Shown piece after piece: positions 31,771 to 49,158 of a stretch of 64,000 bases of DNA. A model generated the notes under the pieces. It had not been told where the DNA came from. It was given only the letters and a program-made list of their open reading frames with translations, and did not search any database. The stretch lies in assembly GCA_963820525.1 (NCBI GenBank), contig CAWGAA010000001.1:2767465-2831464 (forward strand), written 5' to 3'. Every line of letters begins with the position of its first letter. The first letter of the stretch is position 1. A program made the position numbers and the translations under genes. Source of the DNA: an uncultured Spirochaetota bacterium. GTDB taxonomy: Bacteria > Spirochaetota > Spirochaetia > SZUA-6 > Fen-1364.

Positions 31771-32139
31771 GCTGAGCGGGCCAAGTCTCTTAAGGGGATC
31801 AGCTCTATTGAAGAGGGCAATCGGTTTCTTCGGGCTGTATTCACGGAGAAGCTCAACAAAAAGCTGGCTGTTCTTCCTGTTTCACAGACCAACTTTCACC
31901 ACCTCGTGGACCACAGACTTGATCTGCGGAGGATGCTTTGCTGGGAAGAACTACACAGCGTTAGCCATGACCGGGTGGTAAGACACCGTAGCCTTTTGTA
32001 TCAGATCCTTCGGGACAACCGCCCAAGGCCAAGACACAAGGATCATGTGATTGTTCAGGGCTGGTTGGATGGCTCTTTGCATATCTATTTCAAGGGCAAG
32101 GAGCTGAAGGTACAGAAAGTGACGGACATTTCCAGGTAA
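31771..32139 (+). pseudogene. C-terminal remnant of a DDE transposase (ISNCY-like)
   Basis: Open frame directly after the ICMT stop codon. Reads ...GISSIEEGNRFLRAVFTEKLNKKLAVLPVSQTNFHHLVD..LDLRRMLCWEELHSVSHDRVVRHRSLLYQILRDNRPRPRHKDHVIVQGWLDGSLHIYFKGKELKVQKV. This resembles only the C-terminal third of ISNCY-type transposases. No start codon or catalytic core is present. Confidence 0.6.
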
Positions 32140-32192
32140 GAGGTCTGATGGGGACATTTCTAATGAGTCTGGACAATGCGTAGCACGCGCTC

Positions 32193-32221
32193 TTGACAAG
32201 AGCTATGCCTGCTGCTACTGT
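32193..32221 (+). promoter_or_regulatory. Possible sigma70-like promoter of the island operon
   Basis: TTGACA (32193..32198), a 17-nt spacer, then TACTGT (32216..32221). Lies 160 nt upstream of the first island ATG. Hexamer match only. Confidence 0.25.
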
Positions 32222-32381
32222 TTTATTTCGCAGGGGAAAGAGTTTATCTCGCCCAACAGTACTACCTTGATGAAGGGGGTAGTCTATCCTAAGGGCTAGC
32301 TATATCAGACTTTCGCAGCCAATCAGCCTTTCAAGGCTAAGAGAATGCTGAATTCAATAAAGTAGGCTACCTCGCACTGGA

Positions 32382-34358
32382 ATGGAGATGATGAGCGCAA
32401 CCAAGAAAGCTACAACCTCAAAGTCGTCAAAGATTGCCTCGGGCTCATCTACAAAAGCTCGTAAGATCACTTTGAGGCCTTTGTCATCACCCCTAAAGGT
32501 CAAATCAACTTCCGTATCTGACTCCCATAGGTCCATCATGGTGATTTCCGAGAACGGCAAGGAAGTCCGGCTACTTCTACACCGTTTTGCACTCGTCGGG
32601 CCCAGCGACAAGATCTTGTTGGACTCGGCACAAGCCTCCCGAATTTTTGTTGAGTCTGCGGATCCATCTAGAAAGGCCATACCCGTTTCGCCGCACTTTG
32701 AGAAAAGGTCAACTTTACGCTTGGGAGCAAGAGACTATTCGATTCTCGTGAAGGAAATAACCACTCCAAGCGACCTCAAGGAATACGAGTATCTAGAGGG
32801 CTTTCACTATAAGACTTCCTCTGCCATCGTTACTGACGAAGATGAGCCGAGCAAAAGCGGCCTCAATGTTGGTGGAAGAAAAGCCATACTTATCGCCTAC
32901 ATCCAAGTTGGCAAGCGCATGATACCTGCCGGGTACATAGATCTCCAAATGCCTTTGCTAATGGTAAAGCCAAGACACGAGCTCTTTAACAACGGCTTTT
33001 TCCACCCTGATCGCGATATCTCTTGGGATACATGGGATATCAAGAGCATGAGGAAATACGTAAATCTGATTGTTAGGATTGCAAGAATAGTGACAAGCCC
33101 CGATCTTAGGGGCTTAGGTCTTGCACGCATAATAATCGATGCTGCTAAAGACTATGCCAGAGAACGGTGGCATGTCTATGGCAAGTCTCCACTCTTCATG
33201 GAAATCTCAGCTGAAATGCTCAAGTACATGGACTTCGTGACATCTGCTGGAATGCATTTTGTCGGTAACACCGAAGGAAATCTTTCGAGAGTTCACAAAG
33301 ATCTACTTCAAATGCAGAGAGGCCAGAAACTCACTTTTGGGATTATGACACTTCAGAAAAAGTATCTCACGAACTTAAGGCATCTATCGGAAAGTCTACA
33401 CATCTCTTTTCCAGAGGTGCTCGATAGACTGAAGGCACTTACTAAAAACTCTAGCGAAAAAGAGCTTCGATCAAAACTGAATAAATTGAGTGGTCAAGAA
33501 TGGTTCCTATTCAAAAGAGTGCTCAGATTCCCTATTCCATATTTTATATGTGGCCTAGATGATGCGTCCGAATCATTTGTACAAAAACACTCACTAACCC
33601 CTCCAAGCAAGACTACCCAAAACAAGACATTTCAATCTGCAAGGATTGGACTTAAGGATATTAGAGCTACCTCGACATACGAGATCCCAGACAGTGAGCA
33701 AGCTCGCGCGATACGTGACTGTTTTGGACTTGATGGGAATACTTTGAAGGTATCTCTCGTCGGACCTGTCACAATAGAGGCCTCGGGGGGAAACATCATT
33801 CTGATTACGGGTCCAAGCGGAAGCGGAAAAAGTGTACTTTTGCGAGCAATCGCAGATGACAGTGAGACGAAACTAATTCATACCACATATATAAAAACCG
33901 TTGACAAACCATTCGTAGTTGGTTGGCTGACCGAAATTAATAGTGATAAACCCATTATTGAATACTTCAGTGGTATTTGGGGAATGGAATCCTCTATTTC
34001 TGCATTAAATCAAGCAGGATTGTCCGAAGCATTTGTATATCTGAGGCCATATAAACTCTTAAGTAGAGGACAACAATATCGTGCGCGTCTAGCTGCGCTT
34101 AGCCTTGGCTCGGCTAACGTTTGGCTTATGGATGAGTTCTGCGCAGACCTTGATCCCTTCACTGCCCGAATTGTATCAAATAATTTGCGGAAGCACGTTG
34201 TGAGAACTGGAAGGATCGCGATAGTTGCCGCAGCAAACAACGCTCACTACATAGACGCGTTGATGCCCAACAGGATCATCTACCTTAGGCACAACGGCCG
34301 TTGCGAGGTATTTAAATATAAGGAATACATAGATGAGTTTCGTATCAACGCAAGCTGA
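32382..34358 (+). CDS. Island gene 1: GNAT-like acetyltransferase domain fused to a C-terminal ABC-type ATPase
   Basis: 658 aa. GNAT acetyl-CoA loop IVRIARIVTSPDLRGLGLARIIIDAA (R-G-L-G-L-A from 33108). Walker A GPSGSGKS at 33810..33833. ABC signature LSRGQQ at 34059..34076. Walker B VWLMDEF at 34119..34139. No TM domain. Confidence 0.8.
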   Translation: MEMMSATKKATTSKSSKIASGSSTKARKITLRPLSSPLKVKSTSVSDSHRSIMVISENGKEVRLLLHRFALVGPSDKILLDSAQASRIFVESADPSRKAIPVSPHFEKRSTLRLGARDYSILVKEITTPSDLKEYEYLEGFHYKTSSAIVTDEDEPSKSGLNVGGRKAILIAYIQVGKRMIPAGYIDLQMPLLMVKPRHELFNNGFFHPDRDISWDTWDIKSMRKYVNLIVRIARIVTSPDLRGLGLARIIIDAAKDYARERWHVYGKSPLFMEISAEMLKYMDFVTSAGMHFVGNTEGNLSRVHKDLLQMQRGQKLTFGIMTLQKKYLTNLRHLSESLHISFPEVLDRLKALTKNSSEKELRSKLNKLSGQEWFLFKRVLRFPIPYFICGLDDASESFVQKHSLTPPSKTTQNKTFQSARIGLKDIRATSTYEIPDSEQARAIRDCFGLDGNTLKVSLVGPVTIEASGGNIILITGPSGSGKSVLLRAIADDSETKLIHTTYIKTVDKPFVVGWLTEINSDKPIIEYFSGIWGMESSISALNQAGLSEAFVYLRPYKLLSRGQQYRARLAALSLGSANVWLMDEFCADLDPFTARIVSNNLRKHVVRTGRIAIVAAANNAHYIDALMPNRIIYLRHNGRCEVFKYKEYIDEFRINAS

Positions 34359-35730
34359 AAAGTTTGCAGCGGTTTTCGATAGATCTCCTTATCAGTCCAC
34401 TGATCCGATCGTTAAAATTCAGTACGTTCAAAAGGGCAATAATGTTGTTTTTGGTCGAACTCTATCAGGCGAGAACTATGACAAACTAATCTACCTCGGC
34501 AAGGTTTACGAGAATACCGCCGGGAAAAACTACCTTAGTTCAGACGCTTGGCTGGATGTTGGCTACCCGCACGTAATCTATATTACGGGAACGCGAGGAA
34601 GCGGGAAGAGCTTTGACTTAGGCGTCTTGATCGAAGGCATTTCCGAGCTATCTAATCCATCAACAGCGCAGAACAACGTCCAGCCTATCTGCTCGATAGT
34701 AATTGATACGCAGAGCCAATTCTGGACTCTAAACTATACGCCAAACCCGGCTGTCAAGGAGAACAAGGAGCAACTAGCCGAACTTAAGAAATGGAATATT
34801 AGTCCCAATTCTCTGAAGCATTGCAGGCTTTATATTCCTCCCTCAACCGAGAGAATAACAAACACTGAAACCATATTCCAGATTCGAACATCCGACGTAC
34901 GACATGAAGAATGGTGTGCTTTAATCGGTGAGCAAATATACAGTCCTCAAGGGCATGTCCTTGGCCAAGCTCTTGAGGATCTTTCTGGAAAGGCCTATTC
35001 GCTTGAAGATCTGATCTCGTATGTTGCAAATGGAGACAATTGGGATAATGTTCCTGAAGTCTCTCGAAATGCAATCGTCTATAAGCTTGAGGGTTACCGT
35101 CGAACAGGGCTTTTCAGTGCAAAAGGAATCGACATTTGCACGCTACTTTCACCTGGTCAGTGTTCAGTATTTCTTTTGCGGGATCTTAGGAACGAAGACA
35201 AAGCCCTAATCACTTCTCTGATAGCACGCCAACTTTCAAGCATCTTGGGTGCTCACCATAAAAAGCTCAAAGTCAGCAAATTCTTCGAAAGAAAGGAAGA
35301 GGACGACGGACTTCCAAATACAGTTTGGATGTTTATAGATGAGGCTCATGTGGTTGCTCCAAACGGTTCAGTGTCTCCTGCCACCAATGCTCTTATAGAT
35401 TATGTAAAGCGTGGTAGAGATGCAGGACTGTCCTTGGTAATGGCCACGCAACAACCCTCTGCTGTTGATGATAGAATATTGAGCCAAGTCAATATCACAT
35501 TCTCGCATAGACTTACATTTCAAAATGACATAAGTGCTGCGATAAACCGAATACCTACTAAGCTTCTAAAGGACTTGAAATATGCAGGAAGAGATATAAC
35601 AGATTTTGGCGACATGCTTCGGTATCTCGAGGCTGGTGAATGTTTCTTGGGCGATCACAACACTAGCAGAGCTGTCTTGGTTTCTATTAGGCCAAGGGTG
35701 ACTCCTCATGGTGGTTATAACCCAAGCTAA
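34333..35730 (+). CDS. Island gene 2: HerA/FtsK-like (DUF87-type) P-loop ATPase
   Basis: 465 aa. Walker A GTRGSGKS at 34588..34611. Walker B VWMFIDEAH at 35323..35349. LVMATQQPSAVDDRILSQVNITFSHRL is typical of HerA-clade ATPases. AAGGAA SD; 26-nt overlap with gene 1. Confidence 0.8.
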   Translation: MSFVSTQAEKFAAVFDRSPYQSTDPIVKIQYVQKGNNVVFGRTLSGENYDKLIYLGKVYENTAGKNYLSSDAWLDVGYPHVIYITGTRGSGKSFDLGVLIEGISELSNPSTAQNNVQPICSIVIDTQSQFWTLNYTPNPAVKENKEQLAELKKWNISPNSLKHCRLYIPPSTERITNTETIFQIRTSDVRHEEWCALIGEQIYSPQGHVLGQALEDLSGKAYSLEDLISYVANGDNWDNVPEVSRNAIVYKLEGYRRTGLFSAKGIDICTLLSPGQCSVFLLRDLRNEDKALITSLIARQLSSILGAHHKKLKVSKFFERKEEDDGLPNTVWMFIDEAHVVAPNGSVSPATNALIDYVKRGRDAGLSLVMATQQPSAVDDRILSQVNITFSHRLTFQNDISAAINRIPTKLLKDLKYAGRDITDFGDMLRYLEAGECFLGDHNTSRAVLVSIRPRVTPHGGYNPS

Positions 35731-36910
35731 CCCATATCTCACAATTAGTCGTAAAATTGGCTACTCTGTCGGCCTTGAATCACTCAACGAACGTGTCTTT
35801 GAGCTTGTAAAGCTCTACGATACTGAAAAAGGGCTTTCCTTTGCTTCATTTACCAATCTTGTAGAGAAGACATATGCTCGCAAGAATGCTGTGGAACATT
35901 TTGCCAATTTTTATGGTACACTTAATCTTGTTAGGCTTGTCGGAAGAGATATTGAGCCGCTTTTCAGATTAGACACTCTTGCTATTCTACGCAGACTCTT
36001 CCTTGATGACGAACCAAAATTCTTACTATGTCAACGAATCATTCTGACCCTGCTAATCATTGAGGCAGACGGGGATGTATTCCTTAATGGCCTCTTCGCT
36101 GATTTCAAGCCAAACGAGATGAAGACAAAGCTCGAAGCGATGTCCTTCACAAAAATCCAGCGTCTACAGACTGTATTTCCGACGAAAGCCTTGTTAGCGC
36201 AAATGGCTAGCATAATAAACATCAAAAACCAAACTCAGAAGAATGCAATTTCAGATGAAAAGCTTGGTCGCTTCGAAAAACGTAAAATGCCACTTGAGAT
36301 GGGAAAAAGAACTACAAGCCTAGATACTTCAGTTTATTTGACGCAAAACATCTCTGAAGACTACCTTGACAAGACCAGCAAGACAAGAAAGGGATGGGCA
36401 CAAGACTTATTGCTGTTTAAAGGAGAGAAGCGAACGGCCATAGGGGACAAACTGTTGAGCTTTCTATTTGAGAATATAGTCTCCACCGACATTGAACGCA
36501 GTTGTATACTTTATTGGGGCTATAAATCTGATCTAGACCGTATTCGAGTTGACCCCTCAAAAATCAGTGCTATTTCCTTCGAAGAATGGGATCTCATCTC
36601 TCAGATTTCAAAGGCCTATAAAGGGGAAACTTCCGTGGGGACACAGAAACTCTCCGATGATCAATTGTACAAGCTGTTCTTAAAAATGCATCAACTTTAT
36701 AGAGAAGCGTCCTCTTCACGGGGATCTATTCGAAACAGTTTACCCTTGTATATCGCTGAGCCAATTCTCGCTGCGTATTGCGTTGCAAAGAACATTCGGT
36801 TGCCCGACATAAACGCCTATCTAAAGAAAGAGTTCACTCGACCAGTTCGACGTATCCAAAGAATGATAATCCGTGGTACCCTCGGAGCGCTTTACTTCAT
36901 GAAGGAATAA
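35708..36910 (+). CDS. Island gene 3: hypothetical protein, no recognisable motif
   Basis: 400-aa ORF with island-like composition. Overlaps gene 2 by 23 nt and ends 1 nt before gene 4. Confidence 0.65.
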   Translation: MVVITQANPYLTISRKIGYSVGLESLNERVFELVKLYDTEKGLSFASFTNLVEKTYARKNAVEHFANFYGTLNLVRLVGRDIEPLFRLDTLAILRRLFLDDEPKFLLCQRIILTLLIIEADGDVFLNGLFADFKPNEMKTKLEAMSFTKIQRLQTVFPTKALLAQMASIINIKNQTQKNAISDEKLGRFEKRKMPLEMGKRTTSLDTSVYLTQNISEDYLDKTSKTRKGWAQDLLLFKGEKRTAIGDKLLSFLFENIVSTDIERSCILYWGYKSDLDRIRVDPSKISAISFEEWDLISQISKAYKGETSVGTQKLSDDQLYKLFLKMHQLYREASSSRGSIRNSLPLYIAEPILAAYCVAKNIRLPDINAYLKKEFTRPVRRIQRMIIRGTLGALYFMKE

Positions 36911-36911
36911 T

Positions 36912-37796
36912 ATGGCTGTACACATCACCAAAGAGTTTCTCAACGATCTAAGAGAGGCCGATGATCTAAGGTTTGTCAGACAAGTATTGAATCACACGAT
37001 AGACCGTGACGGTGATTTTGCAGACGACAAGGATGATCATAGATATAAGGACATCGATGATGCTTGGATACGCTGCGTCAGTAAAGGCGCAACTGCTTTC
37101 CGGGTAATATTCATAAGAAAAGGTTCAGACATATATCTCTATAGAGCTGGACATCATGACATTGAAGATCATTTGGCGCCTGCGCGCTCCTTTTCCTCGT
37201 CTATTACACTGGCAGAAGGCCCAATCAAACAGCCTCAAGAATATAAAGAGCAAGTTCCTCAGCAGATTTTTCTTAAGAACTCTGAACCTGCCTTCATAAA
37301 CAAGTTCCTGATAAGCATGTATCACTTGAGGCATCATGAGATCTACATTGTGTCTCCTTTTCTGGACTTGCCGATTCTATCTAGCAAGCATCACTTTGGT
37401 AGATTCCTTGACAAAGCAAAGGAAGAGGGAACCGATGTTATTTTGATCACGCTACCTCCAAAAAATGACGATGAGATTACTGTTTTTAGAGACTTGGAGT
37501 TACGAGATATTCGAGTATTCTTTCTTCCTAGACTGCACACAAAGCTATATATCTTTAATGTGGACCTTGAATCGAGAACTTTCTATCAGCGCGGTGTCTT
37601 CGGAACAGCTGTACTCGGATCCTCCAATTTGACATGCCCGGGTCTTGGTTTCGATGAACTGCAGCCTAATGAAGAGCTTTGTTCCACGTTTCACACCGAT
37701 AGAATTGACGAATTGAAGGATTATGTTCTAAAGTTGATGTTTCGCTCTCAGGACTTTACAGATTTTATGCAAAGAAGAAGGAGACAGCAACGATGA
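36912..37796 (+). CDS. Island gene 4: RelE/ParE-like N-terminal domain fused to a PLD-family (single HKD) nuclease domain
   Basis: 294 aa. N-terminus WIRCVSKGATAFRVIFIRKGSDIYLYRAGHHDIED resembles the RelE/ParE C-terminal strands. HKD motif LHTKLYIF...VLGSSNLT at 37536..37628. GAAGGA SD. Confidence 0.75.
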   Translation: MAVHITKEFLNDLREADDLRFVRQVLNHTIDRDGDFADDKDDHRYKDIDDAWIRCVSKGATAFRVIFIRKGSDIYLYRAGHHDIEDHLAPARSFSSSITLAEGPIKQPQEYKEQVPQQIFLKNSEPAFINKFLISMYHLRHHEIYIVSPFLDLPILSSKHHFGRFLDKAKEEGTDVILITLPPKNDDEITVFRDLELRDIRVFFLPRLHTKLYIFNVDLESRTFYQRGVFGTAVLGSSNLTCPGLGFDELQPNEELCSTFHTDRIDELKDYVLKLMFRSQDFTDFMQRRRRQQR

Positions 37797-38932
37797 TTGC
37801 TCCGGAGACATTTTATAAAGCTGCCAATCTGAGGGACAATCCTTTTCGAACAAACCCTGCCGCCGAGGCAGATCCTCGAAGAGGCATCTGGATAGGGTAT
37901 CTGAATGAAAGAAACACGTTGACGAAGTATCTCCAGCGTTCTTTGTCTGACAACGTTGGGAATATCAACTTTGTAATGATTTACGGCGAATTGGGTAATG
38001 GCAAATCGCACGCTCTGCTTTGGTCTCAGCATTTGGTGCTTGTTGCAGAAAACGAGAAATACAACAGTGTTGCATATTATATTCAAAGCCTAAAGCGCGA
38101 CAAAGGCAAAATGTCATTTGTCTCAGCGTTCAATGAAGACATTGTTGGCAAGTCCAATCTTGCGGGAGATCTCCTAATCTATAAACAGTTTGTCTCTGAA
38201 TGCATAATCGAGTATAAGCGAGATAACGCGCTCGGACCTGATGTAAGCAATGATAAGGTGGCTGAGCGACTCATTCCATCAATGGATATGCGTAATACGC
38301 TTACAAAAATTCTGAAATGTGAAACCGAGGACAATATAAGAGGCCTCTTAGGCACTGACACAGACTACTCTGCGATGCTGCTCTTCTGCCAAATTGTGAA
38401 TCTGTTTGTTCACCCTTATGAACTTGCAGCAGGCAAGAAGAGATACAAGAAATGCGTCTATCTCTTCATTGACGAGATGGACGTTCTAGGTGAAGTCCCT
38501 CCCAAAGAAGCCAGAGATGTTAACGCCTTGTTACGACATATCTATGACCTTTGCCCAAATTGCTTCTTCCTTGGGCTTGGCTTCACTGCAACTGCCGCTG
38601 AGCTTGGGGTTCTTTTCGATGAATTTGTTCTTTCTAGAGTTTCGAAGCAAATCACTCTGCAGTTCATGCAGCCTGTAGAAGCTCAGGACTTCATTCGCCA
38701 AATACTCAATACAGTTCGAATTGATAACAAGAAGCACATTGATTATTTCCCATTCACGGAAGACGCGGTTGGGACAATAGTCTCACGAATGGTGTCAATA
38801 ACTCCACGAAAAATCGTTAATCAAATGCTGCAGATACTCGAAGAATGTCGCCTAGCAGATCTTGATCCGTCAAAGGCTCCGATCTCTACAACCCAACTCG
38901 ATGAAAAGGAGATATGGGAGATGGTGGATTGA
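37793..38932 (+). CDS. Island gene 5: P-loop NTPase (AAA/STAND-like, possibly BrxC/BrxD-DUF2791-related)
   Basis: 379 aa. Walker A GELGNGKS at 37985..38008. Walker B VYLFIDEMD at 38456..38482. ATGA overlap with gene 4; GAAGGAG SD. Confidence 0.75.
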   Translation: MIAPETFYKAANLRDNPFRTNPAAEADPRRGIWIGYLNERNTLTKYLQRSLSDNVGNINFVMIYGELGNGKSHALLWSQHLVLVAENEKYNSVAYYIQSLKRDKGKMSFVSAFNEDIVGKSNLAGDLLIYKQFVSECIIEYKRDNALGPDVSNDKVAERLIPSMDMRNTLTKILKCETEDNIRGLLGTDTDYSAMLLFCQIVNLFVHPYELAAGKKRYKKCVYLFIDEMDVLGEVPPKEARDVNALLRHIYDLCPNCFFLGLGFTATAAELGVLFDEFVLSRVSKQITLQFMQPVEAQDFIRQILNTVRIDNKKHIDYFPFTEDAVGTIVSRMVSITPRKIVNQMLQILEECRLADLDPSKAPISTTQLDEKEIWEMVD

Positions 38933-39792
38933 GCAAGAAAATTGTCGGCGCAAAGACGAAGGCTCAGAAAGTCCTCGATGGCTTTGCGCAGTCAGAATGT
39001 CTCCCCATAGTGCAATCCATATCATCCATGCTAATTCGACTCCAAACAGCGTTTGACCTCCTTGGCAAATCGATTATGCACACTGACCAGAACTCTTCTC
39101 CTGTCATAGATCCTTCCACCATCCTTGAAGCAATTGAAAGCATGAAGCTTTCAGAGTTTTCTCTTGATAAAGATGCTGTAGATAATGCTCGCAAATGGGC
39201 AATTTTCCAACTTGCCACGACCTATAGCAACCTTGGAGAGTTGATTCGACAACACTGTGCCGAGCGAGCGATAAAGATAGACGGCGGCCCACGATCTTTC
39301 ATTCTTGCTAATTTTCTGCATATTGTAATCGATTTTGAATCAAATGCCGTGTTTATAGAAGACAAAAAACTCGAGCGACTATCCACTTCCGCTATTCTTA
39401 AGTTGATCGATGCGGAAATTTCGAATGAAAACAAAAGAAGCCCGAGCTCGAGTGAATTCCTACTTGCTTGTTATCGGGCATATAGCTACCTCATAAAGGC
39501 TTCTGCTCAAGAGTATGGTACTCCTATGAGAGTTCGCGATGTTTACAAACAGATTATTATTGCGAGTCAGCCGGAGAAATTTTGGAAGAACCCCAATCGC
39601 GCAAACCTATTTGAATATGATGAACATCTCTTCAAGCGAGATCTTGTACGACTCTTTCTTGAGAACTCTTCGGCCCTTCCAACTGGTGAAAGTATTGAGC
39701 TATTGCCTACTGCCTTTCCTAAACAAGGGATTCCAATCCCTTTGCCCGAAGGCACAAGATACATCGGTCATATTGCCTTCCGCAGAGCATAA
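38914..39792 (+). CDS. Island gene 6: hypothetical protein, no recognisable motif
   Basis: 292-aa ORF. 19-nt overlap with gene 5; ends 2 nt before gene 7. Start uncertain because the SD is too close to ATG 38914. Confidence 0.6.
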   Translation: MGDGGLSKKIVGAKTKAQKVLDGFAQSECLPIVQSISSMLIRLQTAFDLLGKSIMHTDQNSSPVIDPSTILEAIESMKLSEFSLDKDAVDNARKWAIFQLATTYSNLGELIRQHCAERAIKIDGGPRSFILANFLHIVIDFESNAVFIEDKKLERLSTSAILKLIDAEISNENKRSPSSSEFLLACYRAYSYLIKASAQEYGTPMRVRDVYKQIIIASQPEKFWKNPNRANLFEYDEHLFKRDLVRLFLENSSALPTGESIELLPTAFPKQGIPIPLPEGTRYIGHIAFRRA

Positions 39793-39794
39793 CA

Positions 39795-41102
39795 ATGCTT
39801 GAGCTTTCTATTGAGACTGCTAGAAGGATCATAAGCCATCTAAAATCGGGAACTACTCCTATCGATTGTGTTCAACATCTCAACGTTGGCAACGAGAAGT
39901 GGTATTCTGCTGCAGAACGGCAACTTAAGGATATTTCAGTTGATGGGGATTCTTTGGTTAGATTCATAAACGGCTATTACGGCGACGGTAAGACGCACTT
40001 CCTTGGAATGCTAAGGGCGATAGCTTTTTCGAACAGGTGGGCGGTGTCTTATGTCTCAGCTGAGAACACTCCATTACACAAATTTGATGTCGTTTATTCT
40101 GAAATCATTCGGAACCTTAGCATTCCCCGTTCTTTGACACTTCCAGAATGGATTGCCAAAGAAGATTGTAGAGGTGCACCAGCAATACTTGGAGCGCTTT
40201 TCTTTCGCTTTTACTTTGAGGCATACAGATTATCAGACAACGCTGGCTTACGAAAAGAAAGAGTAATCGAAACTATTCGACATAGGGTAGCGACATTTTG
40301 TTCCCAACCGGATATCTCGGAGCCTCTCGGAGTCGCGATTAGGTACTATTTCGAGGCTATAATAAAGGGAGACTCCTCAACCGCTCATTCGCTTTGTGAA
40401 TGGCTTGAAGGAATGGATGCCCGCGTTGACGGATTGCCTGTTCTGAAGAGGATCGATAAGCTTCGATCCAGAGACGCAAGTCGGGGACTATCGATAATCA
40501 CCAAGGCCTCGGGCATCTCTGGAGTTCTTATACTGATCGATGAGGCCGAGCGGATCATGGAACAGTCCCGATCTATACGCAACAAGAGCTACGGTGTTCT
40601 TAGAGATCTCTTAGATAATGCGGATGACCATGGCGGAATGACCTCAACCATCTATTATGTTGCTGCTACCCCGGAAATGTTTGAAACTGCAAGCGGTTTT
40701 GCTGAATACGACGCACTACGTTCGCGGCTTTCTAACATCGCTATCGCCTATGCCCCCGACTTAATAGATTGGCGCGGTACTCTTGTTAACCTAGTGAAGA
40801 CCCCAATGAGTCCCGAGAACCTATCTTCTTTAGCGCGAAAAGTTATCGGAATCCACTCTATTGCCCGTCAATGGAATCCATCTTCTATCCTTTCTGAGGA
40901 CTTGATCGATAAGATTATTGAAAAGGTAGTTGCTGGCGTCTTTTCATCTTCCAAGCCTCGTATAGTAACCTCTTTCTTCGCTAATCTGCTTGAGCTTCTG
41001 GAACAGAATAGAGAATATCCGCTAAACGATGGTATCGAAAGCGTATTGTCCTACATAGTGCCAATCCTCAAGACGAAGCCAAAAGCAAAGTCTTGGGAAT
41101 AG
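39795..41102 (+). CDS. Island gene 7: P-loop NTPase, BrxC/BrxD (DUF2791)-like
   Basis: 435 aa. Walker A GYYGDGKT(H) at 39972..39995. Walker B VLILIDEAE at 40524..40550. Size and G-x-Y-G-x-GK-[ST]-H context recalled from BREX BrxD-type ATPases. Confidence 0.7.
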   Translation: MLELSIETARRIISHLKSGTTPIDCVQHLNVGNEKWYSAAERQLKDISVDGDSLVRFINGYYGDGKTHFLGMLRAIAFSNRWAVSYVSAENTPLHKFDVVYSEIIRNLSIPRSLTLPEWIAKEDCRGAPAILGALFFRFYFEAYRLSDNAGLRKERVIETIRHRVATFCSQPDISEPLGVAIRYYFEAIIKGDSSTAHSLCEWLEGMDARVDGLPVLKRIDKLRSRDASRGLSIITKASGISGVLILIDEAERIMEQSRSIRNKSYGVLRDLLDNADDHGGMTSTIYYVAATPEMFETASGFAEYDALRSRLSNIAIAYAPDLIDWRGTLVNLVKTPMSPENLSSLARKVIGIHSIARQWNPSSILSEDLIDKIIEKVVAGVFSSSKPRIVTSFFANLLELLEQNREYPLNDGIESVLSYIVPILKTKPKAKSWE

Positions 41103-41107
41103 ACCCA

Positions 41108-42235
41108 ATGATTTCAAACCAACTAAAGCTCAGGCGGAACATTCGCTACCTCAAGAGAGGCGTATTCCCGCCTGAAGACATTGAACAATTTACTTTTGGT
41201 CGCGAGCGTGAATTGGCTGTCATTCAGAAAAAGCTATCCGAAGTAAAGGATGGTTGCTGTAGATCTCTCTTTATTCAGGGCGTGTACGGACGAGGGAAAT
41301 CACATTTATTAAAGTCAATTGAGGCCTCAGGTCTACAGAGAGGATTTGCTGTGGCTTGGGTTACAATAGACGGATATGCGCATGCCTTCAATCACCCAAC
41401 TAGGTATCTGCATTCCATTTCGGAAAGCATTCGCTTTCCATCCAGTCCTTATCGAGGTCTTGCGGCCAACGCTCGTGCTTGGTTATCGGGCGACAAACGT
41501 GAGACCCTTCTTTCATATCTCAGAAGCTCTCGCAATACTTGGATGTCTTTTGCACTTCAATCAATTGCAAGAGATCATCCTTCGTTTCTCGAAAACCATT
41601 ACAACAGCATTATTGAGAGTCGAGACCTCTTGGGCAAGAACGGTAAACAATGGTTTGAGCTGGTCGTAGAACGGCTAGATGATATTAGCCGTTTATGTAA
41701 GCTTGTAGGACACGGCGGAGTCATTTACCTTTTTGATGAGATTGAATCAATCGCCACCCAATTGTCCACGATTAGGCAGAGGCTATTGTCCTATGAGTTT
41801 TTAAATATGCTTATCGATGAACGTCGACATGCCCATAGCTTTCTTGCATTCGCGGCTACCCCAGATTTTGGAAATAAGATATTGGAAGATGTAGCAGCTA
41901 TTTCAAACTATGAAGCTGATTATGCTGATGCATGCAGATTCATTAGGAAATGGATTTCTAACAGCGTAGACTGCATAAATATCAACAGGTTATCAAAAGA
42001 CTGTCTCTTCCTTCTCTGTGAGCATATTCGAACTATTCATGAGAAGGCGTATGAATGGAAATCAAACGGGGCAGTATCCTCGGAGAGCATTAGGACGTTG
42101 GTTAGCGAGTGTTTCGCAAAAAACCTTGGAACGAGAGAGATTGTCAGAACAGTCGTTCATCTTCTTGAGGTCCATGAGCAGCTCTCTCATACGCATTCTT
42201 CCAGTCATAGCAGACTGAACGACGAAATCAAATGA
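41108..42235 (+). CDS. Island gene 8: P-loop NTPase, BrxC/BrxD (DUF2791)-like paralogue
   Basis: Track start 41093 is TTG. The ATG at 41108 (MISNQLKL) lies 5 nt after the gene 7 stop. Walker A GVYGRGKS(H) at 41279..41302. Walker B VIYLFDEIE at 41720..41746. Confidence 0.7.
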   Translation: MISNQLKLRRNIRYLKRGVFPPEDIEQFTFGRERELAVIQKKLSEVKDGCCRSLFIQGVYGRGKSHLLKSIEASGLQRGFAVAWVTIDGYAHAFNHPTRYLHSISESIRFPSSPYRGLAANARAWLSGDKRETLLSYLRSSRNTWMSFALQSIARDHPSFLENHYNSIIESRDLLGKNGKQWFELVVERLDDISRLCKLVGHGGVIYLFDEIESIATQLSTIRQRLLSYEFLNMLIDERRHAHSFLAFAATPDFGNKILEDVAAISNYEADYADACRFIRKWISNSVDCININRLSKDCLFLLCEHIRTIHEKAYEWKSNGAVSSESIRTLVSECFAKNLGTREIVRTVVHLLEVHEQLSHTHSSSHSRLNDEIK

Positions 42236-42574
42236 AAGTTTGACCATTGTCTCAAGAAGTCTATTAAGATATTTGTGTCACTTATTGCTATCCGCATGCT
42301 CTTCGCTCAACTCCGCTTCGGCATCAGAAATTGTCAAGATAGACAAAGCTGCCGCTTTGCTTATGCTTCTGAGACTGACCTATATAAGAACCGTTTGAAT
42401 CTTGATGGTTTCTCAATCCCGAGGCATCCTCCTGGCTCCTTTTTCTGCCAGCCATACCTCTCAAACTCGCGCATGAGAGCACTGTAGCTGCATCGGAAAG
42501 AAGCGCGTGCGCATATGCCCGAAATGGAATTGCCTGAATTGAGATGCCGTATTTAGACTCGTTTATATGTCCCC

Positions 42575-44237
42575 TTACCCCTTCACCTCCAGTATCTCCT
42601 CAGGTATATGTGTAATAAGCTTCACCAGTTCCTCGAATCTAAAGTCAATGTCCATCACGGCATACATCTCCTTCTTGGAGTTGTAGATCGGCATCGCCGC
42701 CGTCATGATCAGCTTGTCCGTGTACTTGGAGAAAAAGAGATCCGAGTAATACGGCTCTCCGGTCTTCAGGACCGCGACAAACCAGTCATGCTTCCTGAAG
42801 TCCTTGTTCATGAGGTTTCTGAAAAGACTCTTCTCCCCGCGCTGGGTGTGCGCCTGGGAGATGCGCAGGCCCTCCAGGTTTGTCACGGCAAGAAGCTGGA
42901 TGGAGGCCTCCCGCGTCACCACGTCATGGAGGTAGCTCTCCATGCGCTCTGCATCCAGGGAGCGCACCTCCTCTGAGACGGAGATGTGCTGGGCGATGTG
43001 GCGGGCCTTTTCAATCGCGGCCTCTTTAGCTTTCTGGAAGTCGGAGACGAAAAGCGAGGGCAGGAAATGCTTTGCCTGCGCCACAAGCTCATCAGCGGAA
43101 ATGCTTGTGGTTCGGCCTTGGGCATACTGCTCAGTGACCCAGGCGTTGATGTGCTTGATGCCGGGGTGGCGCTTGACCACCGGCTCCATGGCCCTGCCCG
43201 TGAGCTGCGGGATGTTTTTGTTTATCCATTGCGCAATTCCCGCCATGCCGGATTTGTCCGTCACCATCACGCGGATGGGCCTGTTCAGAAGAGCCTCAGT
43301 ATCAAAAATGTTATAGATCTCCGGGTTCTTGAGGATGCCGTCCGCGTGGATGCCCGCGCGGGTCACGTTGAACTCGACCCCACAAAGGGATAGTTGGGTG
43401 CAACGGGAGCCTGGATCTCCGTCCGGAAATAGTCAGCAATCTCCGTGATGACACGGGTGTTCATGCCATCCGGCGTTCCCTTAAGCCCTATGTACTCCAC
43501 CACCGCGGCTTCAAGCGGCGGGTTTCCCGTGCGCTCGCCAAAGCCCAGCACCGTGGCGTTTAGCGCGGAACATCCGTACAGCCAGGCGGATGTGGCGTTC
43601 ACGTGCACCTTGTGAAAATCGTTGTGGCCGTGCCACTCCAGAAGCAGAAGCCGTAGATGTCCGCGCGCGTAATATCTTCAAAGTGACAGCGCGGCCGTAT
43701 GCCCTCCTCAAGCGCTGATTTCACAATGGCAAGGTAGTCTTCCATGACCTTGGCGCGGTTTGACTTGAACTTGAGAAACACGTGGTAGTCTGAGACAGAG
43801 GTGAGGATGCCCGTCTCCTTGAGGCCTAACCCCTTTACTATAGACAGATCCTTTGCGTCAGCGCAAATCCATCCCGTCACCTCGGGGAACGGGTGTCCCA
43901 GGGCAAGGCAGGCCTCTACCGCCTGCGCGTCCCGCTTGGAGTACAGGAAGAACTCGCTTTATCTGATCACGCCCTTGGGGCCGCCCAGCTTGTGGAGAAG
44001 CCCAAAGATGAGGGCAATCTGCTCCGGGGCATACGGCGGCCGGGCCTGCTGGCCGTACCGGAAAGTGGTGTCCGTTATCCAGATGTCCTTGGGAGGGTTC
44101 AAAGGCACTTCCAGGCCGTCAAAGAGGATGCGCGGGATATCGGAATAGGGGAATTGCTCCCGGTAGAGGTTGGGTTCCGCGGGAGATTCAAGGGGGAACG
44201 TGCGCCTGACAGGCAAAGGAGAGAAGGTGCTTTGCAT
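42575..44237 (-). pseudogene. Disrupted homocitrate/isopropylmalate-synthase-like (HMGL-type) gene with C-terminal Cache-like domain
   Basis: Four consecutive track ORFs (43959..44237, 43599..43880, 43363..43608, 42575..43366) form one protein. Motifs are TDTTFRYGQQ; HFEDITRADIYGF; HGHNDFHK; GERTGN; and GIHADGILKNPEIYN plus a Cache-like tail. First break: in-frame TAA at 43959..43961 (GVIR*SEFFLYSKRD). Second break: a frame-changing deletion between DIYGF and LEWHGHNDFHK near 43608..43640. Third break: a 1-nt deletion near 43371 (YPFVGS/EFNVTRAG). The start ATG and GGAGG SD are retained. Confidence 0.8.
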
Positions 44238-44382: not shown

Positions 44383-44814
44383 TCATGCTAGACCGCAAAA
44401 GCCTATCACTTTTTCAGCCAGCTCGCCCAAATCCTTCCGCGCCTCAGAAAGCGCATAGTCAAGGAACTCTGCCAGCGGATCTGTATCCCTCTCCCAGTAT
44501 GGCTCAACAAAAGAGATGCCATATTTCTTTACCAATCGGTCGAGAGCAACGGCGCAGACGAATACATCATCAATGTATCCCGCTGGGCCGTAGATCTTTT
44601 CCGGAAGCAGGTCGTTCGGTACAATCAAATAGCCCAGGACGCAGAGAATAGTCATTCTGTCTTCCGCTTGTAATTCCGGCCGGTCAAGGACGCCGGACAA
44701 AGCCTTGAAGATCGCGGGGAGGTAATAAATGTATTCCTTGATAGAACCGTGATAGGCGTTGATCTCCGTTTCCAGAAAATCGTGATAATCCTCAGGCATT
44801 TGTGCTTTTGCCAT
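44383..44814 (-). CDS. DUF1232 (YkvA-like) domain protein
   Basis: Track start 44820 is TTG. The ATG at 44814 follows AAGGAG with a 7-nt spacer. VPNDLLPEKIYGPAGYIDDVFVCAVAL resembles the DUF1232 core. Overlaps the helicase stop. Confidence 0.65.
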   Translation of the reverse strand: MAKAQMPEDYHDFLETEINAYHGSIKEYIYYLPAIFKALSGVLDRPELQAEDRMTILCVLGYLIVPNDLLPEKIYGPAGYIDDVFVCAVALDRLVKKYGISFVEPYWERDTDPLAEFLDYALSEARKDLGELAEKVIGFCGLA

Positions 44815-47590
44815 CGCCAAGCTCCTTGCAGATGAATTGATAATGGCATGCAGGACAGCGGGAGGGGTCTTTATTCAGTGGAAAAGATTTGGCTTTAAGA
44901 CCATCAGAGACTGAAGAGAGAAGACTTTTTGCTGTTCCATCATCATAATCGAAATCAATGCATTGACTGTCAAAAAAGGTGTATGTGGCCATTCGTTGGA
45001 TGGCGGTATCCACAAGACAGTGGCGGTAAATGCCAAGCTGGTCTTTGACGCCCGTTTCCTCAATGCCTTCACGTGTACGTGCCTTGAAATCAACCAGCGT
45101 GTTTTTGCCGGTATTATCCCGAGCCACCAGATCAACCTTCCCTCGGACAATCGTGGTGCCGTCGATGTGTACAAACGGCTTTTCGAAAGAGTGAATCTCG
45201 CGGAACTCTTTTACTGCAAAGGCAAGGTATTTAAGGGTGAGGCCAAGGTAGCTCTTCTTGAGCTTTTCATCAGATTCTTCGTCATAGATGGGGATCCATG
45301 ATCCGTTTATGAATCCCTGGATATCGCCCTTGGTCACTTTTTTACCATTTTTCAAGGCCCAGTTCACTTTCTGCAGAACATTGTGAATGATAACTCCTTG
45401 TCGCTGCATCGGTTCCGCAGAGGAAGCGAATCCATAGAAGTAATTGATCTTGTAGCGGAACGGGCAATCCCGGTAGGTATGGACGGCGCTGTAGCTCAGG
45501 GATGTCACGGAAAGCGGAGAAATGTAGGAGTTGTCCATCCGTATATCAGTGTCGATTTCCTCCGTGACATATCCCTTGATCATTTCGATAAAACGGGAGG
45601 GCCGCGCTTTTCTGACATTAATTTTCTCAGGAACTGTGATCATTAGGAGATCCTGGGCTCGAGTGATTGCCACATACAACAGCCTGAGTTCCTCCTCGAA
45701 ATGCCTTTTCTCATCAGCCGTTTTTATCTTCATGAGATTATCTGGGATCGGGATGCCGCAGACTGGTTCTTTTTCCCGATAGCGGAGAGGAAAATCTCCC
45801 TCGATCAACGAGCAGACGACCACGGCTGGGAACTCCAGGCCCTTTGCCTTGTGCACCGTCATGCATTTGGCCGCTTCCGTGCTTTCAACAAAGACCTGGT
45901 CCATTCCCTTGTCCATTGTCTTGTTGTAGAGCAGCCATAAAAGGTCTTTCGCGGACGGCCGTGAGAAACGCCGTTGGTAACCGTCAACAATCCTGGTAAG
46001 CTGGGCCAGGTTTAAAAGCTTCTCCTCATTTTCTGGGCAGGGATGATCGAAGAGCAGCGACAGATATCCGGAGAGCTTGAAGATTTCATACAGAGCGTCG
46101 AGCAAGCCGATCTCATTTTCTTCTATTCTTTTCTTGGCTAGATTCAGCTCTACCAGGACTCGGCTATCCTTGCGATTTCTGATGCCGAGCGCTGAAGCCT
46201 TTTTGTCTGAATTGATTGCGTTGAGGCTGGAGTTTCGCGGAAGGTTGCGGAGCACGTCCAGGGTCGTGCGCGAGAAAGAAATCACCTCATTGTCAAAAAG
46301 ATCGGGCCGCCACCAATCGCTCCAATCCTTGAATCGTGTTTCAGCTATCAAGCTTTGATGCAGATAGCTGAAGATGTTGATAACGTCCCGGATCTCCTTC
46401 CGCTCCAGAAAGCGGCCGTCGCTATCCGTGGCGAATGCCAGACCGTGTTCCTGCAAAGCCGCGGTAACATCGGTTGCCAGGCTTCTTTTTCGATAGAGAA
46501 AGGCGCAGTCGCCTATGGAAAGCTTTCCCTGTGCAATCTTTTTTTTCAAAAACAGAACAGCATTTTGAGCCACGGCTCTCCTGTTTTCCCCGTTGATGAG
46601 GATAATCTCATTTCCCTTGGAGCGATGGGCCTCAAGTTTTTCCTTGATTTTAGCTTCCAAGAGCTTGTTGGCAGTGTCAACGATGTTTTTTGTAGAACGA
46701 AAATTGGTGTTCAAAGTAAAAGACTTTGTCTCTGGATACCGGCAGGAGAATTGCGTGAAGCTTTCCCGCACTGCTCCCCGAAAACCGTAGATGCTCTGGT
46801 TTTCATCCCCAACGACAAAGATGTTTTTATGGTCCGAAACGATATGCCTGATGATTTCATTCTGTATGGGGTTGGTGTCCTGATATTCGTCCACGAGCAC
46901 AAAGCGGAACCGCTCCTGGACAGGCGTGCGGACGGCCCGAATATCTGAAAGCATTTTCAATGCGATGCTTTCAAGATGTGCAAAATCAACGAGTTTTTCC
47001 GCGCGTAATAATGCCACATACCTCTTATAGCTTTCGATAAGTGCCCTGCCATCCTCGGTTTCCACGCCCATCTTTTCTATCACAGCGGCTAATGCCTTTG
47101 GTTTAATGTCGTTTTCTGTGATGGTGTTATAGAGAAGGCATACCTGATCTTCTGGATTGCCTGCGAATCCTGCCGCTTTGCTGATGAGATTACGCCAGCC
47201 GTGTGGACCATTGAGACCCAGCCGGTATCTGTTTGCGATGATAAAAAGCTTCTGGTTCTCACTGTCAAGAATGTTGAAGGAGGCGCCAAAATCTTGAAAG
47301 ACGAAATGGTCTTCCATGATCGTCTTGCAGAGAGAGTGGATGGTTGAAACGTGAACTGCCTTCGCGTTTTCTCCTATTGAGAGAAAAAGGCGAGTGCTCA
47401 TCTCCTCCGCGGCCTTTTCCGTAAAGGTCACAGCCAGGATACTATTCGGTTGGGTTTTTTTCTCTTCTATGAGAAACTTTATCCGCTCAATCAGGACCCG
47501 GGTCTTGCCGGAACCCGGTCCGGCAATGACTATTGCGGGTCCCAAATAGTGGTGCGCTGCATCTCTTTGGCGGTCGGTGAGCTGGACCAT
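44792..47590 (-). CDS. UvrD/PcrA-type SF1 helicase fused to a C-terminal Cas4/AddB-like Fe-S PD-(D/E)XK nuclease
   Basis: 932 aa. Walker A AGPGSGKT (about 47501..47524). DEYQD at 46877..46891. Helicase motifs VGDENQSIYGFRGA and TVHKAKGLEF. C-terminal nuclease GKVDLV...LVDFK. Cys set RDCPFRY...CPACHYQFIC (C-x2-C-x5-C at 44828..44857). Confidence 0.85.
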   Translation of the reverse strand: MVQLTDRQRDAAHHYLGPAIVIAGPGSGKTRVLIERIKFLIEEKKTQPNSILAVTFTEKAAEEMSTRLFLSIGENAKAVHVSTIHSLCKTIMEDHFVFQDFGASFNILDSENQKLFIIANRYRLGLNGPHGWRNLISKAAGFAGNPEDQVCLLYNTITENDIKPKALAAVIEKMGVETEDGRALIESYKRYVALLRAEKLVDFAHLESIALKMLSDIRAVRTPVQERFRFVLVDEYQDTNPIQNEIIRHIVSDHKNIFVVGDENQSIYGFRGAVRESFTQFSCRYPETKSFTLNTNFRSTKNIVDTANKLLEAKIKEKLEAHRSKGNEIILINGENRRAVAQNAVLFLKKKIAQGKLSIGDCAFLYRKRSLATDVTAALQEHGLAFATDSDGRFLERKEIRDVINIFSYLHQSLIAETRFKDWSDWWRPDLFDNEVISFSRTTLDVLRNLPRNSSLNAINSDKKASALGIRNRKDSRVLVELNLAKKRIEENEIGLLDALYEIFKLSGYLSLLFDHPCPENEEKLLNLAQLTRIVDGYQRRFSRPSAKDLLWLLYNKTMDKGMDQVFVESTEAAKCMTVHKAKGLEFPAVVVCSLIEGDFPLRYREKEPVCGIPIPDNLMKIKTADEKRHFEEELRLLYVAITRAQDLLMITVPEKINVRKARPSRFIEMIKGYVTEEIDTDIRMDNSYISPLSVTSLSYSAVHTYRDCPFRYKINYFYGFASSAEPMQRQGVIIHNVLQKVNWALKNGKKVTKGDIQGFINGSWIPIYDEESDEKLKKSYLGLTLKYLAFAVKEFREIHSFEKPFVHIDGTTIVRGKVDLVARDNTGKNTLVDFKARTREGIEETGVKDQLGIYRHCLVDTAIQRMATYTFFDSQCIDFDYDDGTAKSLLSSVSDGLKAKSFPLNKDPSRCPACHYQFICKELGDGKSTNA

Positions 47591-49086: not shown

Positions 49087-49158
49087 CGGCGGCCGCGAAT
49101 ATGGACCTGCCAATCAGTCGTGCCGAGGATTAAACTATTGATAAGGGGAAGGTTCTCC

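Follow-up and report, generated by a model that had tools for sequence, protein, structure and literature searches.

A candidate composite HerA/FtsK-capture-type defence operon with three initiator-clade AAA+ ATPases in an uncultured Spirochaetota bacterium

Introduction

Why do three ATPases resembling the BrxC and BrxD proteins of bacteriophage exclusion (BREX) systems stand almost side by side in DNA in which no BREX hallmark is recognisable? The question is raised by a stretch of 64,000 nucleotides (nt) from an uncultured Spirochaetota bacterium (GenBank assembly GCA_963820525.1, contig CAWGAA010000001.1, positions 2,767,465 to 2,831,464 of the forward strand), referred to here as the window, with positions counted from its first letter. 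An earlier note on this DNA had read three of its genes, called here g5, g7 and g8, as BrxC/BrxD-like paralogues interleaved with an orphan gene, g6, and had suggested a hetero-oligomeric ATPase assembly. The three ATPases belong to an eight-gene operon, g1 to g8, that joins two cassettes, g1-g5 (cassette A) and g6-g8 (cassette B), each of which also occurs alone in other bacteria.

BrxD and its counterpart SngB in the Shango system are among the least understood parts of these two systems. A computationally defined class of HerA/FtsK "capture systems" combines a HerA/FtsK ATPase, an Orc/Cdc6-type AAA+ ATPase and a nuclease (PMC10853773). Taking the whole package together, mechanism included, we infer with modest confidence that the operon encodes a composite anti-phage or anti-plasmid system of the capture type, built from two fused cassettes.

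Results

An eight-gene operon on a low-GC island

The eight genes (Table 1) are co-directional and either overlap, by 26 nt (g1/g2), 23 nt (g2/g3), 4 nt (g4/g5, in the sequence ATGA) and 19 nt (g5/g6), or lie at most 5 nt apart, and they therefore form one operon. They occupy an island of 42-45% guanine-plus-cytosine (GC) content from 32001 to 42300, set in flanks that are mostly at 54-65% in the composition profile, with 49-50% at 44-48 kb, and the operon is horizontally acquired. All eight open reading frames (ORFs) are intact, and their lengths match those of the orthologues in another locus, L031. The island borders carry no att-like flanking repeats, no tRNA genes and no integrase; promoter and terminator scans of the locus gave no excess over shuffled sequence, and an Rfam search gave no family match. 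Of the six GxxGxGK[ST] motifs that the window contains, five fall in the operon (g1, g2, g5, g7 and g8). Its domain content, its modularity, its kept gene pairs and the intact motifs of its ATPase, HKD and GNAT domains are direct observations, and our confidence in this anatomy is high.

Table 1. Coordinates in the window of the operon, its genes and neighbouring features (aa, amino acids)
Feature	Position	Strand	Length	Description
g1-g8 block	32382-42235	+		eight co-directional genes; g5-g8 are the last four (37793-42235)
g1	32382-34358	+	658 aa	N-terminal region, GNAT domain at about aa 150-290, C-terminal ABC-type ATPase; first gene of cassette A
g2	34333-35730	+	465 aa	HerA/FtsK-type P-loop translocase
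g3	35708-36910	+	400 aa	conserved, no assignable fold; always after the HerA gene
g4	36912-37796	+	294 aa	N-terminal domain (about 90 aa, conserved) and a single HKD/PLD nuclease domain
g5	37793-38932	+	379 aa	ORC/Cdc6-fold AAA+; closes cassette A, in every case next after the PLD gene
g6	38914-39792	+	292 aa	conserved, no assignable fold; first gene of cassette B
g7	39795-41102	+	435 aa	PF10923 AAA+ ATPase, "position 2" paralogue
g8	41093-42235	+	375 aa from ATG 41108, or 380 aa from TTG 41093	PF10923 AAA+, "position 3" paralogue; end of the operon
Chemoreceptor	1531-3720			full-length methyl-accepting chemotaxis protein (MCP)
AAA_14 + DUF4143 ATPase	29112-30308	+		2 kb upstream of the island
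Cache/PDC ORF	42575-43366	-	263 aa	right edge of the island
Helicase-nuclease fusion	44792-47590	-	932 aa	UvrD-type helicase + PD-(D/E)XK nuclease; GC about 49%
WG-repeat protein	49120-50340	+		10 WG_beta_rep repeats
Fic/DOC family protein	54953-56107	+		Fic_N + Fic

Two PF10923 ATPases and a third initiator-clade ATPase

The shared motifs that the earlier note had reported are exact and confined to g5, g7 and g8. The Walker A context G-x-x-G-x-GK-[ST]-H reads GELGNGKSH in g5 (aa 65, nt 37985-38011), GYYGDGKTH in g7 (aa 60, nt 39972-39998) and GVYGRGKSH in g8 (aa 63, nt 41279-41305; g8 is numbered from the TTG), and the hhhhDE Walker B reads VYLFIDEMD (aa 222, nt 38456-38482), VLILIDEAE (aa 244, nt 40524-40550) and VIYLFDEIE (aa 210, nt 41720-41746), respectively. 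The distance between the two motifs, proposed to be similar at about 150-180 aa, was measured as 157, 184 and 147 aa. GxxGxGK[ST]H occurs three times in the six frames of the window, each time in one of these genes, and not once in 100 shuffles. Since GK[ST]H and hhhhDExE/D vary little or not at all among 35 g5-type, 83 g7-type and 62 g8-type sequences, all three proteins are predicted to be active ATPases. The histidine after Walker A is not specific to BrxD, because DnaA also has GKTH.

That all three are BrxC/BrxD-like paralogues holds for two of them. Against a gathering cutoff of 22.2 bits for PF10923, g7 matches the BrxC_BrxD family at 2e-50 (172.4 bits, profile positions 5-411 of 414) and g8 at 2.9e-28 (99.4 bits in two stretches, with AAA_16 at 3.5e-8). 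The PADLOC models give the same picture for BrxD (g7 3.7e-38, g8 6.5e-16) and for SngB (g7 4.9e-29, g8 3.5e-16), while both proteins stay below the 350-bit cutoff of the NCBIfam equivalog NF033438 (BREX_BrxD), at 128.1 and 61.2 bits. The two are homologous over their full length, with 23.5% identity, a blastp E value of 3e-16 and a family-profile alignment at 99.9% probability (hhalign, E 2.7e-37). An exhaustive HMMER search with g8 returned 931 representatives at E<=1e-3, 23 of them at E<=1e-30.

The third ATPase, g5, is a distinct family and not a member of PF10923, to whose lineage it has a remote link. It has no PF10923 match at E<=0.1 and no Pfam, NCBIfam or meaningful PADLOC match, and blastp aligns it with neither g7 nor g8 at a significant level. 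Its family comprises 241 relatives, nearly all unnamed, among which the Pfam matches are all weak: AAA_16 in 42 of 46 members, AAA_22 in 36, BrxC_BrxD in 28 (E<=0.01, best 3.3e-6) and TniB in 22. By hhalign the g5 family scores 5% against the g7 family and 89% against the g8 family (E 2.6e-6, 283 columns). A second group of "g5-like" proteins (alignment A10; 377-414 aa), which adjoin PLD genes in other loci, gives 97.6% (E 4.6e-12, 316 columns) when aligned with the g5 family and 96.3% (E 2e-9) when aligned with the g8 family.

At the level of fold the three proteins come together. In Foldseek, the AlphaFold2 (AF2) model of g5 (predicted local distance difference test score 92.9) finds ORC1, ORC4 and Cdc6 first (E 2e-8 to 1e-6, template modelling score about 0.5) and the N-terminal part of BrxC (9zll_B) at rank 44, and that of g7 (score 88.5) finds domain III of DnaA and ORC weakly (E 3e-3 to 1e-2). 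A profile search of the Protein Data Bank (PDB) with the g8 family matched DnaA of Aquifex (1e-4) over the stretch that holds the GKTH Walker A motif; the g5-family profile and the g7 protein, searched against PDB sequences, gave nothing useful. Features of initiator-clade AAA+ proteins are present: a core with a lid, helices inserted behind strand 2, and Walker A and B motifs that are intact. In the AF2 models the insert lies between strand 2 and the Walker B strand (aa 109-206 in g5, whose insert measures about 125 aa, and aa 97-238 in g7), and this long all-helical element accounts for the unusual Walker A-B spacing of 147-184 aa; after its AAA+ core the g5 model is all-helical. BrxD itself has been assigned to the ORC/Cdc6 clade (PMC12839542), and for that reason ORC/Cdc6, which had been named as an unrelated family whose recovery would speak against BrxD kinship, is an ill-posed alternative. 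We conclude that g5, g7 and g8 are initiator-clade AAA+ proteins of one loose assemblage.

The clades were defined with a distance tree, a coarse neighbour-joining tree of very divergent sequences, together with cross-scoring against family hidden Markov models (HMMs). Three old clades emerged: g5 with the g5-like proteins, position 2 (the g7 orthologues) and position 3 (the g8 orthologues). SngB from plasmid Shango loci is sister to the g7 lineage and nearer to g7 than g8 is, so the notion that the paralogues duplicated in situ finds no support. In every locus examined the g7-type gene lies upstream of the g8-type gene, and from this constant order and the three old clades it follows that the split between g7 and g8 predates the spread of the cassette.

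Cassette B: a gene trio beside interchangeable motors

Cassette B was sampled from contigs with g7 relatives and from 80 metagenomic loci found with the g7 alignment. The loci, here and below, are fetched contigs, some of them near-duplicates from related samples (e.g. L036-L038 and L044/L045). The g6-, g7- and g8-type genes are in register almost everywhere in L024-L029 and L033-L112, with g7 and g8 kept as a pair in more than 80 loci and the trio present without g5 in about 60. In about 55 loci the g7-type proteins are 27-31% identical to g7. A g7/g8 hetero-oligomer is thus plausible; the three-protein assembly that had been proposed loses ground, since g5 and the g7/g8 pair travel independently.

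Nor is g6 an orphan, as had been supposed: in over 60 of the fetched loci, HMM searches found a gene of the g6 type directly upstream of g7 and g8. A word-based search with g6 finds only itself, and a metagenome scan with its alignment found nothing; the 31 non-redundant sequences of the family (alignment A5) are 13-26% identical and have no Pfam or PDB match. Two C-terminal motifs, F-[AK]-R-D-L and R-Y-I-G-R-I-A-F, stand out. We rejected g6 as an analogue of the TerB-domain protein SngA, as it has no TerB match and A5 aligns with plasmid SngA at 0.2% in hhalign.

Where enough sequence is available, in 24 of the about 55 loci with g7-type proteins 27-31% identical to g7, the trio adjoins a homologous protein of 1,056-2,106 aa, downstream in 23 and upstream in one. 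In the two examples scanned, the N-terminal part of this megahelicase matches the PADLOC models BrxHI (2e-89) and SngC (1e-70), and the C-terminal part is of superfamily 1 (SF1; AAA_11/AAA_12), resembling MkoA and DpdJ. In L053 a protein of 1,112 aa combining RNase_H_2 and SF1 domains takes its place. The conserved four-gene unit of a g6-like protein, two PF10923 ATPases and a helicase of 1,600-2,100 aa (L057-L112, e.g. L077:9126-18409), common across metagenomes, looks like an unnamed "double-ATPase" relative of Shango and is not among the systems that PADLOC 2023 calls.

Cassette A: HerA, a PLD nuclease and a GNAT-ABC protein

A first genome scan with the g5 sequence alone found nothing; with the g5 alignment, a scan of one genome for each species yielded 23 loci. 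About 19 of these carry the order g1-g5 without g6-g8, in Alpha-, Beta- and Gammaproteobacteria and Binatia, and g5 always follows the PLD gene. One spirochaetal locus (L019) has the cassette A order without g2, L032 is a further lone example, and only L012 among the 23 carries all eight genes. The genes downstream of g5 in the five-gene loci encode housekeeping functions (sigma-70, an AMP-binding enzyme, an MFS transporter and the like), and the idea that they are alternative accessory modules was dropped.

In g1, the GNAT domain has the acetyl-CoA motif R-G-L-G-L-A near aa 243, and the ATPase has Walker A GPSGSGKS (nt 33810), an LSRGQQ signature and Walker B VWLMDEF. The protein of the window matches Pfam ABC_tran at 8e-10 and Acetyltransf_1 weakly; among its orthologues, which stand at the same position in at least 18 loci, ABC_tran is found in all 20 examined and Acetyltransf_1 in 16, and the residues of the Q/RxxGxG/A-type GNAT motif are invariant. 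A PDB profile search returned ABC nucleotide-binding domains only, at profile positions of about 426-627. Two of the 20 orthologues, assigned to L039 and L043 from protein length, carry an extra ASCH domain (5.6e-15) N-terminal to the GNAT and ABC ATPase parts. ASCH proteins that have been characterised act as N4-acetylcytidine amidohydrolases (PMC6972931).

The translocase g2 has Walker A GTRGSGKS (nt 34588) and Walker B VWMFIDEA. It matches DUF87, the HerA central domain, at 5.5e-7 and HerA_C weakly. Among other models, those for HerA in NCBIfam, several for HerA in PADLOC (up to 4.8e-14) and mad8, a generic one (4e-19), also match. With 52-77% identity it is the most conserved gene of cassette A. 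Its companion g3 matches nothing in Pfam, PADLOC or NCBIfam, and its orthologue profile (alignment A6, 19 sequences) matches nothing in the PDB. Both g3 and g6 are poorly conserved (13-47% identity).

The HKD domain of g4 reads H209-x-K211 ... G236-S237-x-N. In 20 orthologues (alignment A8) G236 and S237 never vary and conservation of H209 and K211 is 90% or more, so that the pattern HxK(x)4D ... GSxN is recognisable, with the residue after HxKxxxx being N or variable rather than D. PLDc_2 is weak in g4 itself (5.7e-4) and found in 18 of the 20 orthologues (best 7e-8), and RE_NgoFVII PLD matches 13 of the 20. The N-terminal domain (aa 1-90, 36912-37180) is very strongly conserved, with the consensus DDHRY..AWIR.VS....A.R.I......I.LYRAG.H, in which D42, H43, W52, I53, R54, S57, R64, I66, R78, G80 and H82 are invariant, and could serve regulation or act as a second effector. 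It shows a faint RelE/ParE-like pattern; with ParE_toxin matching one orthologue in 20, at E 0.03, we do not take ParE/RelE identity beyond a hint. The g4 profile found nothing among PDB sequences. We predict g4 to be the effector nuclease of the operon, none of whose proteins matches restriction endonuclease (REase) or PD-(D/E)XK families in Pfam or PADLOC.

Loci that join the two cassettes

All eight genes occur together in at least 11 distinct loci (the window, L012, L030, L031, L034-L039, L041-L045 and L056), and the gene order of the window is repeated in L031, L034, L039 and L041-L044. The 19-nt overlap of g5 and g6 in the window is replaced by a gap of 16-111 nt in the other eight-gene loci, where both genes again point the same way. 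The operons of L012 and L030, both contigs of metagenome-assembled genomes, are split into many short ORFs (g1, g2, g4, g5 and g8), and assembly frameshifts are a more likely cause of this than real decay.

Seven further loci (L024, L026, L046, L048 and L053-L055), some with an added sigma-54-type AAA+ protein, have an alternative order: PLD, g5-like AAA+, g2-like HerA, a protein of 413-424 aa, g6, g7 and g8. The HerA genes upstream of g6-g8 are thus of the g2 type; the protein that follows them was considered as a homologue of g3 and rejected (hhalign 0.3%). The pairs PLD then g5-type and HerA then its next protein, and the run g6-g7-g8, are kept despite the reordering, which speaks for their being functional sub-modules. 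In L024 (1-12447), genes for ParB_N and TGT/DUF5591 proteins (DpdB/DpdA-like) lie upstream, in the slot of g1. The same locus has the sigma-54-type AAA+ gene and a g5-like gene split into two ORFs.

L024 lies inside an integrative and conjugative element (ICE), with a TrwC relaxase, an integrase and Mrr nearby; insertion sequence (IS) elements accompany L031 and L032, and H-NS and an anti-restriction gene accompany L030. No relatives were found among 2.9 million IMG/VR viral contigs, and a phage origin was rejected on that ground. No g5 relatives were found in 72,556 plasmids, where the g7 matches are ordinary Shango loci.

Likeness to known defence systems

A BREX locus of any type has pglZ and brxC/pglY as core genes, together with the methyltransferase gene pglX or a PAPS reductase gene. 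No PglZ, PglX or full-length BrxC was found among the eight operon proteins and 20 flanking ORFs. The earlier picture of BrxD as an ATPase that occurs singly next to PglX, PglZ and BrxC was incomplete, as PF10923 ATPases also occur in Shango, with a TerB-domain protein and a DEAD helicase. Published work describes BrxD as a lone ORC/Cdc6-clade AAA+ protein tightly linked to a Ski2-like helicase, and a helicase-loader function has been proposed for it (PMC12839542). The wider cassette B family keeps this ATPase-helicase link of the BrxD-BrxHI dyad of type 2 BREX/Pgl; in contrast to the dyad, the ATPase is duplicated and has a dedicated partner in g6, and the window lacks PglX, PglZ, BrxC, PglW and BrxHI.

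Shango consists of SngA, a TerB-domain protein, SngB, a PF10923 ATPase, and SngC, a DEAD/DEAH helicase. An SngB-type ATPase is present here in both g7 and g8, which share the Pfam family of SngB, and most other cassette B loci add a helicase whose N-terminal part is like SngC and BrxHI and follow the same layout of a small first gene, ATPase or ATPases, and helicase. The operon differs in having two paralogous ATPases instead of one, no TerB domain in g6 or its family, and no SngC-type helicase beside the ATPases or elsewhere in the window; a HerA translocase and a PLD nuclease are attached instead.

A broader parallel is the capture class, where ATPases of the Orc/Cdc6 type position the machinery on DNA, which the HerA pump passes to a nuclease; its published members have a REase, an inactive REase (iREase) inserted in the Orc/Cdc6 protein, and winged helix-turn-helix (wHTH) proteins (PMC10853773). 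A related system, BRC, comprises PglZ, DUF6079, STAND and DUF4007 proteins and recruits GNAT and TGT enzymes (PMC12839542). The present locus shares with these a HerA/FtsK ATPase in the operon (g2), coupled Orc/Cdc6 AAA+ proteins (g5 with its ORC1/ORC4/Cdc6 fold, g7 with its DnaA/ORC likeness), an endonuclease, a mobile setting, the GNAT domain of g1 and, in L024, the ParB and TGT genes. It differs in the HKD/PLD nuclease, the GNAT-ABC fusion, the three large-insert AAA+ proteins and the two proteins without an assignable fold, g3 and g6, which, poorly conserved and unmatched, are the candidates for the rapidly evolving wHTH DNA-binding protein of the capture type. A sequence-level search of the operon proteins found no active REase and no iREase inserted between the AAA+ core and a C-terminal wHTH, and none of the PglZ, DUF6079, STAND and DUF4007 components was detected in the locus.

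Two other systems offer looser parallels. DndF is a P-loop protein sometimes carrying a GNAT domain, DndG a DNA-binding protein of about 400 aa and DndH a HerA/FtsK-nuclease protein (PMC10853773); DndFGH/DptFGH are alike in logic only, as here the nuclease is a protein distinct from HerA and of the HKD type instead of a REase, and the PADLOC DndF, DndG and DndH models do not match g1-g4. Like the methylation-associated defence system MADS (mad1-mad8), the operon has eight genes, and mad8 matches g2 (see above) as mad3 matches the g1 ATPase (5.8e-12). MADS is defined by kinase, specificity-subunit and methylase components, with mad6-mad8 mandatory (bioRxiv 10.1101/2023.03.30.534895); membership was rejected, there being no kinase, specificity-subunit or methylase domains in the operon. 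Because HHpred alignments to PDB ATPases underlie the mad3 and mad8 profiles, these behave as generic ABC and HerA models.

Discussion

A proposed mechanism

In the composite capture-type system that we favour, the AAA+ proteins of the initiator clade would load or activate a DNA motor, which would be the HerA hexamer here and a BrxHI-type megahelicase in most cassette B loci. By analogy with the BrxD-BrxHI dyad and the SngB-SngC pair, we propose that g7 and g8, probably in a hetero-oligomer with g6, act as a sensor-loader that recognises or marks foreign DNA. As cognate AAA+ protein, g5 would partner the PLD nuclease g4, to which the HerA motor would feed DNA, and g1 may supply a modification or regulatory step, as suggested by the DpdA/DpdB-like genes in its slot in L024 and by the recruitment of GNAT and TGT enzymes in BRC. 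We place moderate confidence in the defence role and lower confidence in the mechanism.

Several observations weigh against this reading. The neighbourhood of the operon is mostly housekeeping and no recognised defence system was found in the window; PADLOC 2023 calls no known system either, which also fits a non-defence role. The match to the capture class is thematic only, as the published systems use REase/iREase proteins and have neither an HKD nuclease nor a GNAT-ABC protein. A quarter of the operon, g3 and g6, has no assignable fold, the role of g1 is a guess, and self/non-self discrimination is not attributed to any demonstrated element. One close cassette B relative (L028/L033) has g7 and g8 only, without motor or nuclease. 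Finally, since each cassette occurs alone, their fusion could be the co-location of two systems.

Alternative explanations

This last point leads to the serious rival, in which g1-g5, a self-sufficient HerA-PLD system, and g6-g8, a reduced Shango-like system, are independent and merely adjacent, with no cross-talk. The separate occurrence of each cassette, and of g7 and g8 by themselves in L028/L033, is what it would predict, and defence systems commonly cluster. It has more difficulty with the tight operon and the 19-nt overlap of g5 and g6, with a cassette B that lacks an effector of its own and is adjoined by a motor or nuclease in nearly every locus, and with the coupling of cassette B to HerA, PLD and g5-type genes in two gene orders, which is hard to explain by chance adjacency. 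We consider it unlikely, though by a long way not negligible.

A variant of the composite system would make g6-g8 a portable, heteromeric ORC/DnaA-like loader-sensor for interchangeable motors, either the BrxHI+SF1 megahelicase or HerA with a PLD nuclease, and g1 an ATP-driven nucleic-acid acetyltransferase that marks the cell's own DNA or RNA, so that the whole would be an acetylation-based system resembling restriction-modification. The idea comes from the ASCH domain in some g1 orthologues and from the DpdA/DpdB-like genes in the g1 slot of one relative, and we give it a small chance of being right.

The reading closest to the original suggestion, a single hetero-oligomeric BrxD-like ring of locally duplicated g5, g7 and g8 with g6 incidental, is improbable, because g5 and g7/g8 travel independently. 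The three proteins do have GK[ST]H, hhhhDExE/D and the long spacing in common, all belong to the initiator clade, the g5 family is remotely linked to the g8 lineage, and all three stand together in the eight-gene loci. Against a common ring, g5 occurs without the other two in most genome loci and they without it in the many cassette B loci counted above; the clades are old and separate, with SngB closer to g7 than the 23.5% identical g8 is, g5 lacks a significant pairwise match to either, and g6 is conserved with g7 and g8.

Still less probable is a role in the biology of mobile elements (DNA transfer, partition, replication initiation or addiction) instead of defence. HerA/FtsK pumps and ORC/DnaA-like initiators also serve such functions, the fold of g5, g7 and g8 is nearest to replication initiators, the N-terminus of g4 is faintly ParE/RelE-like, and the operon lies on a low-GC island, with related loci in ICEs or beside IS elements. 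Yet the cassettes are not accompanied by a relaxase, a coupling protein, an integrase, replication origin features or partition genes, their flanks differ at every locus, and g5 relatives are absent from the plasmids searched; dedicated HKD nucleases and GNAT enzymes are characteristic of conflict systems, and the closest partners of cassette B are BrxHI/SngC-type helicases, known from defence. A decayed type 2 BREX or Shango locus that has lost PglX, PglZ, BrxC and BrxHI or SngA and SngC, to which the BrxD and SngB matches of g7 and g8 might point, is contradicted and has next to no chance of being correct: the eight ORFs are intact and of L031-like lengths, the gene set recurs in many loci, g7 scores 128 against the 350 bits of the BrxD equivalog, g6 is unrelated to TerB/SngA, and BREX core genes, as noted at the outset, and Shango partner genes are found nowhere in the window.

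Significance

The interest of the locus lies in its wiring. It presents BrxD/SngB-type ATPases as a conserved paralogous pair with a dedicated partner, connected to differing motors and nucleases, and this varied wiring supports the helicase-loader idea for BrxD; the pair would be expected to bind and activate the co-encoded motor. Two cassettes for which we found no name have come to light, g1-g5 in at least 20 bacterial species and g6-g8 with the megahelicase in dozens of metagenomic loci, and PADLOC 2023 calls neither. In the literature on PF10923/BrxD-like ATPases and HerA, our coverage of which is incomplete so that a prior description is possible, neither cassette is described. The GNAT-ABC(-ASCH) architecture hints at nucleic-acid acetylation in defence, which, if true, would be a new kind of self-mark.

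Genes around the island

The AAA_14 + DUF4143 ATPase upstream of the island (Table 1) belongs to a family that is also found just downstream of the cassette in L003 (11443-12630), which may be coincidence or mark a recurrent neighbour. The Cache/PDC ORF at the right edge consists of the sensor part only, without the MCP signalling domain; the window also encodes a full-length MCP for comparison, and this ORF may be a chemoreceptor gene truncated by the insertion. The UvrD-type helicase fused to a PD-(D/E)XK nuclease, just beyond the island, could be a repair gene or another defence gene. It is, with the MCP and a rhamnosidase, one of only three ORFs of at least 700 aa in the window, which farther downstream also encodes the WG-repeat protein and the Fic/DOC family protein.

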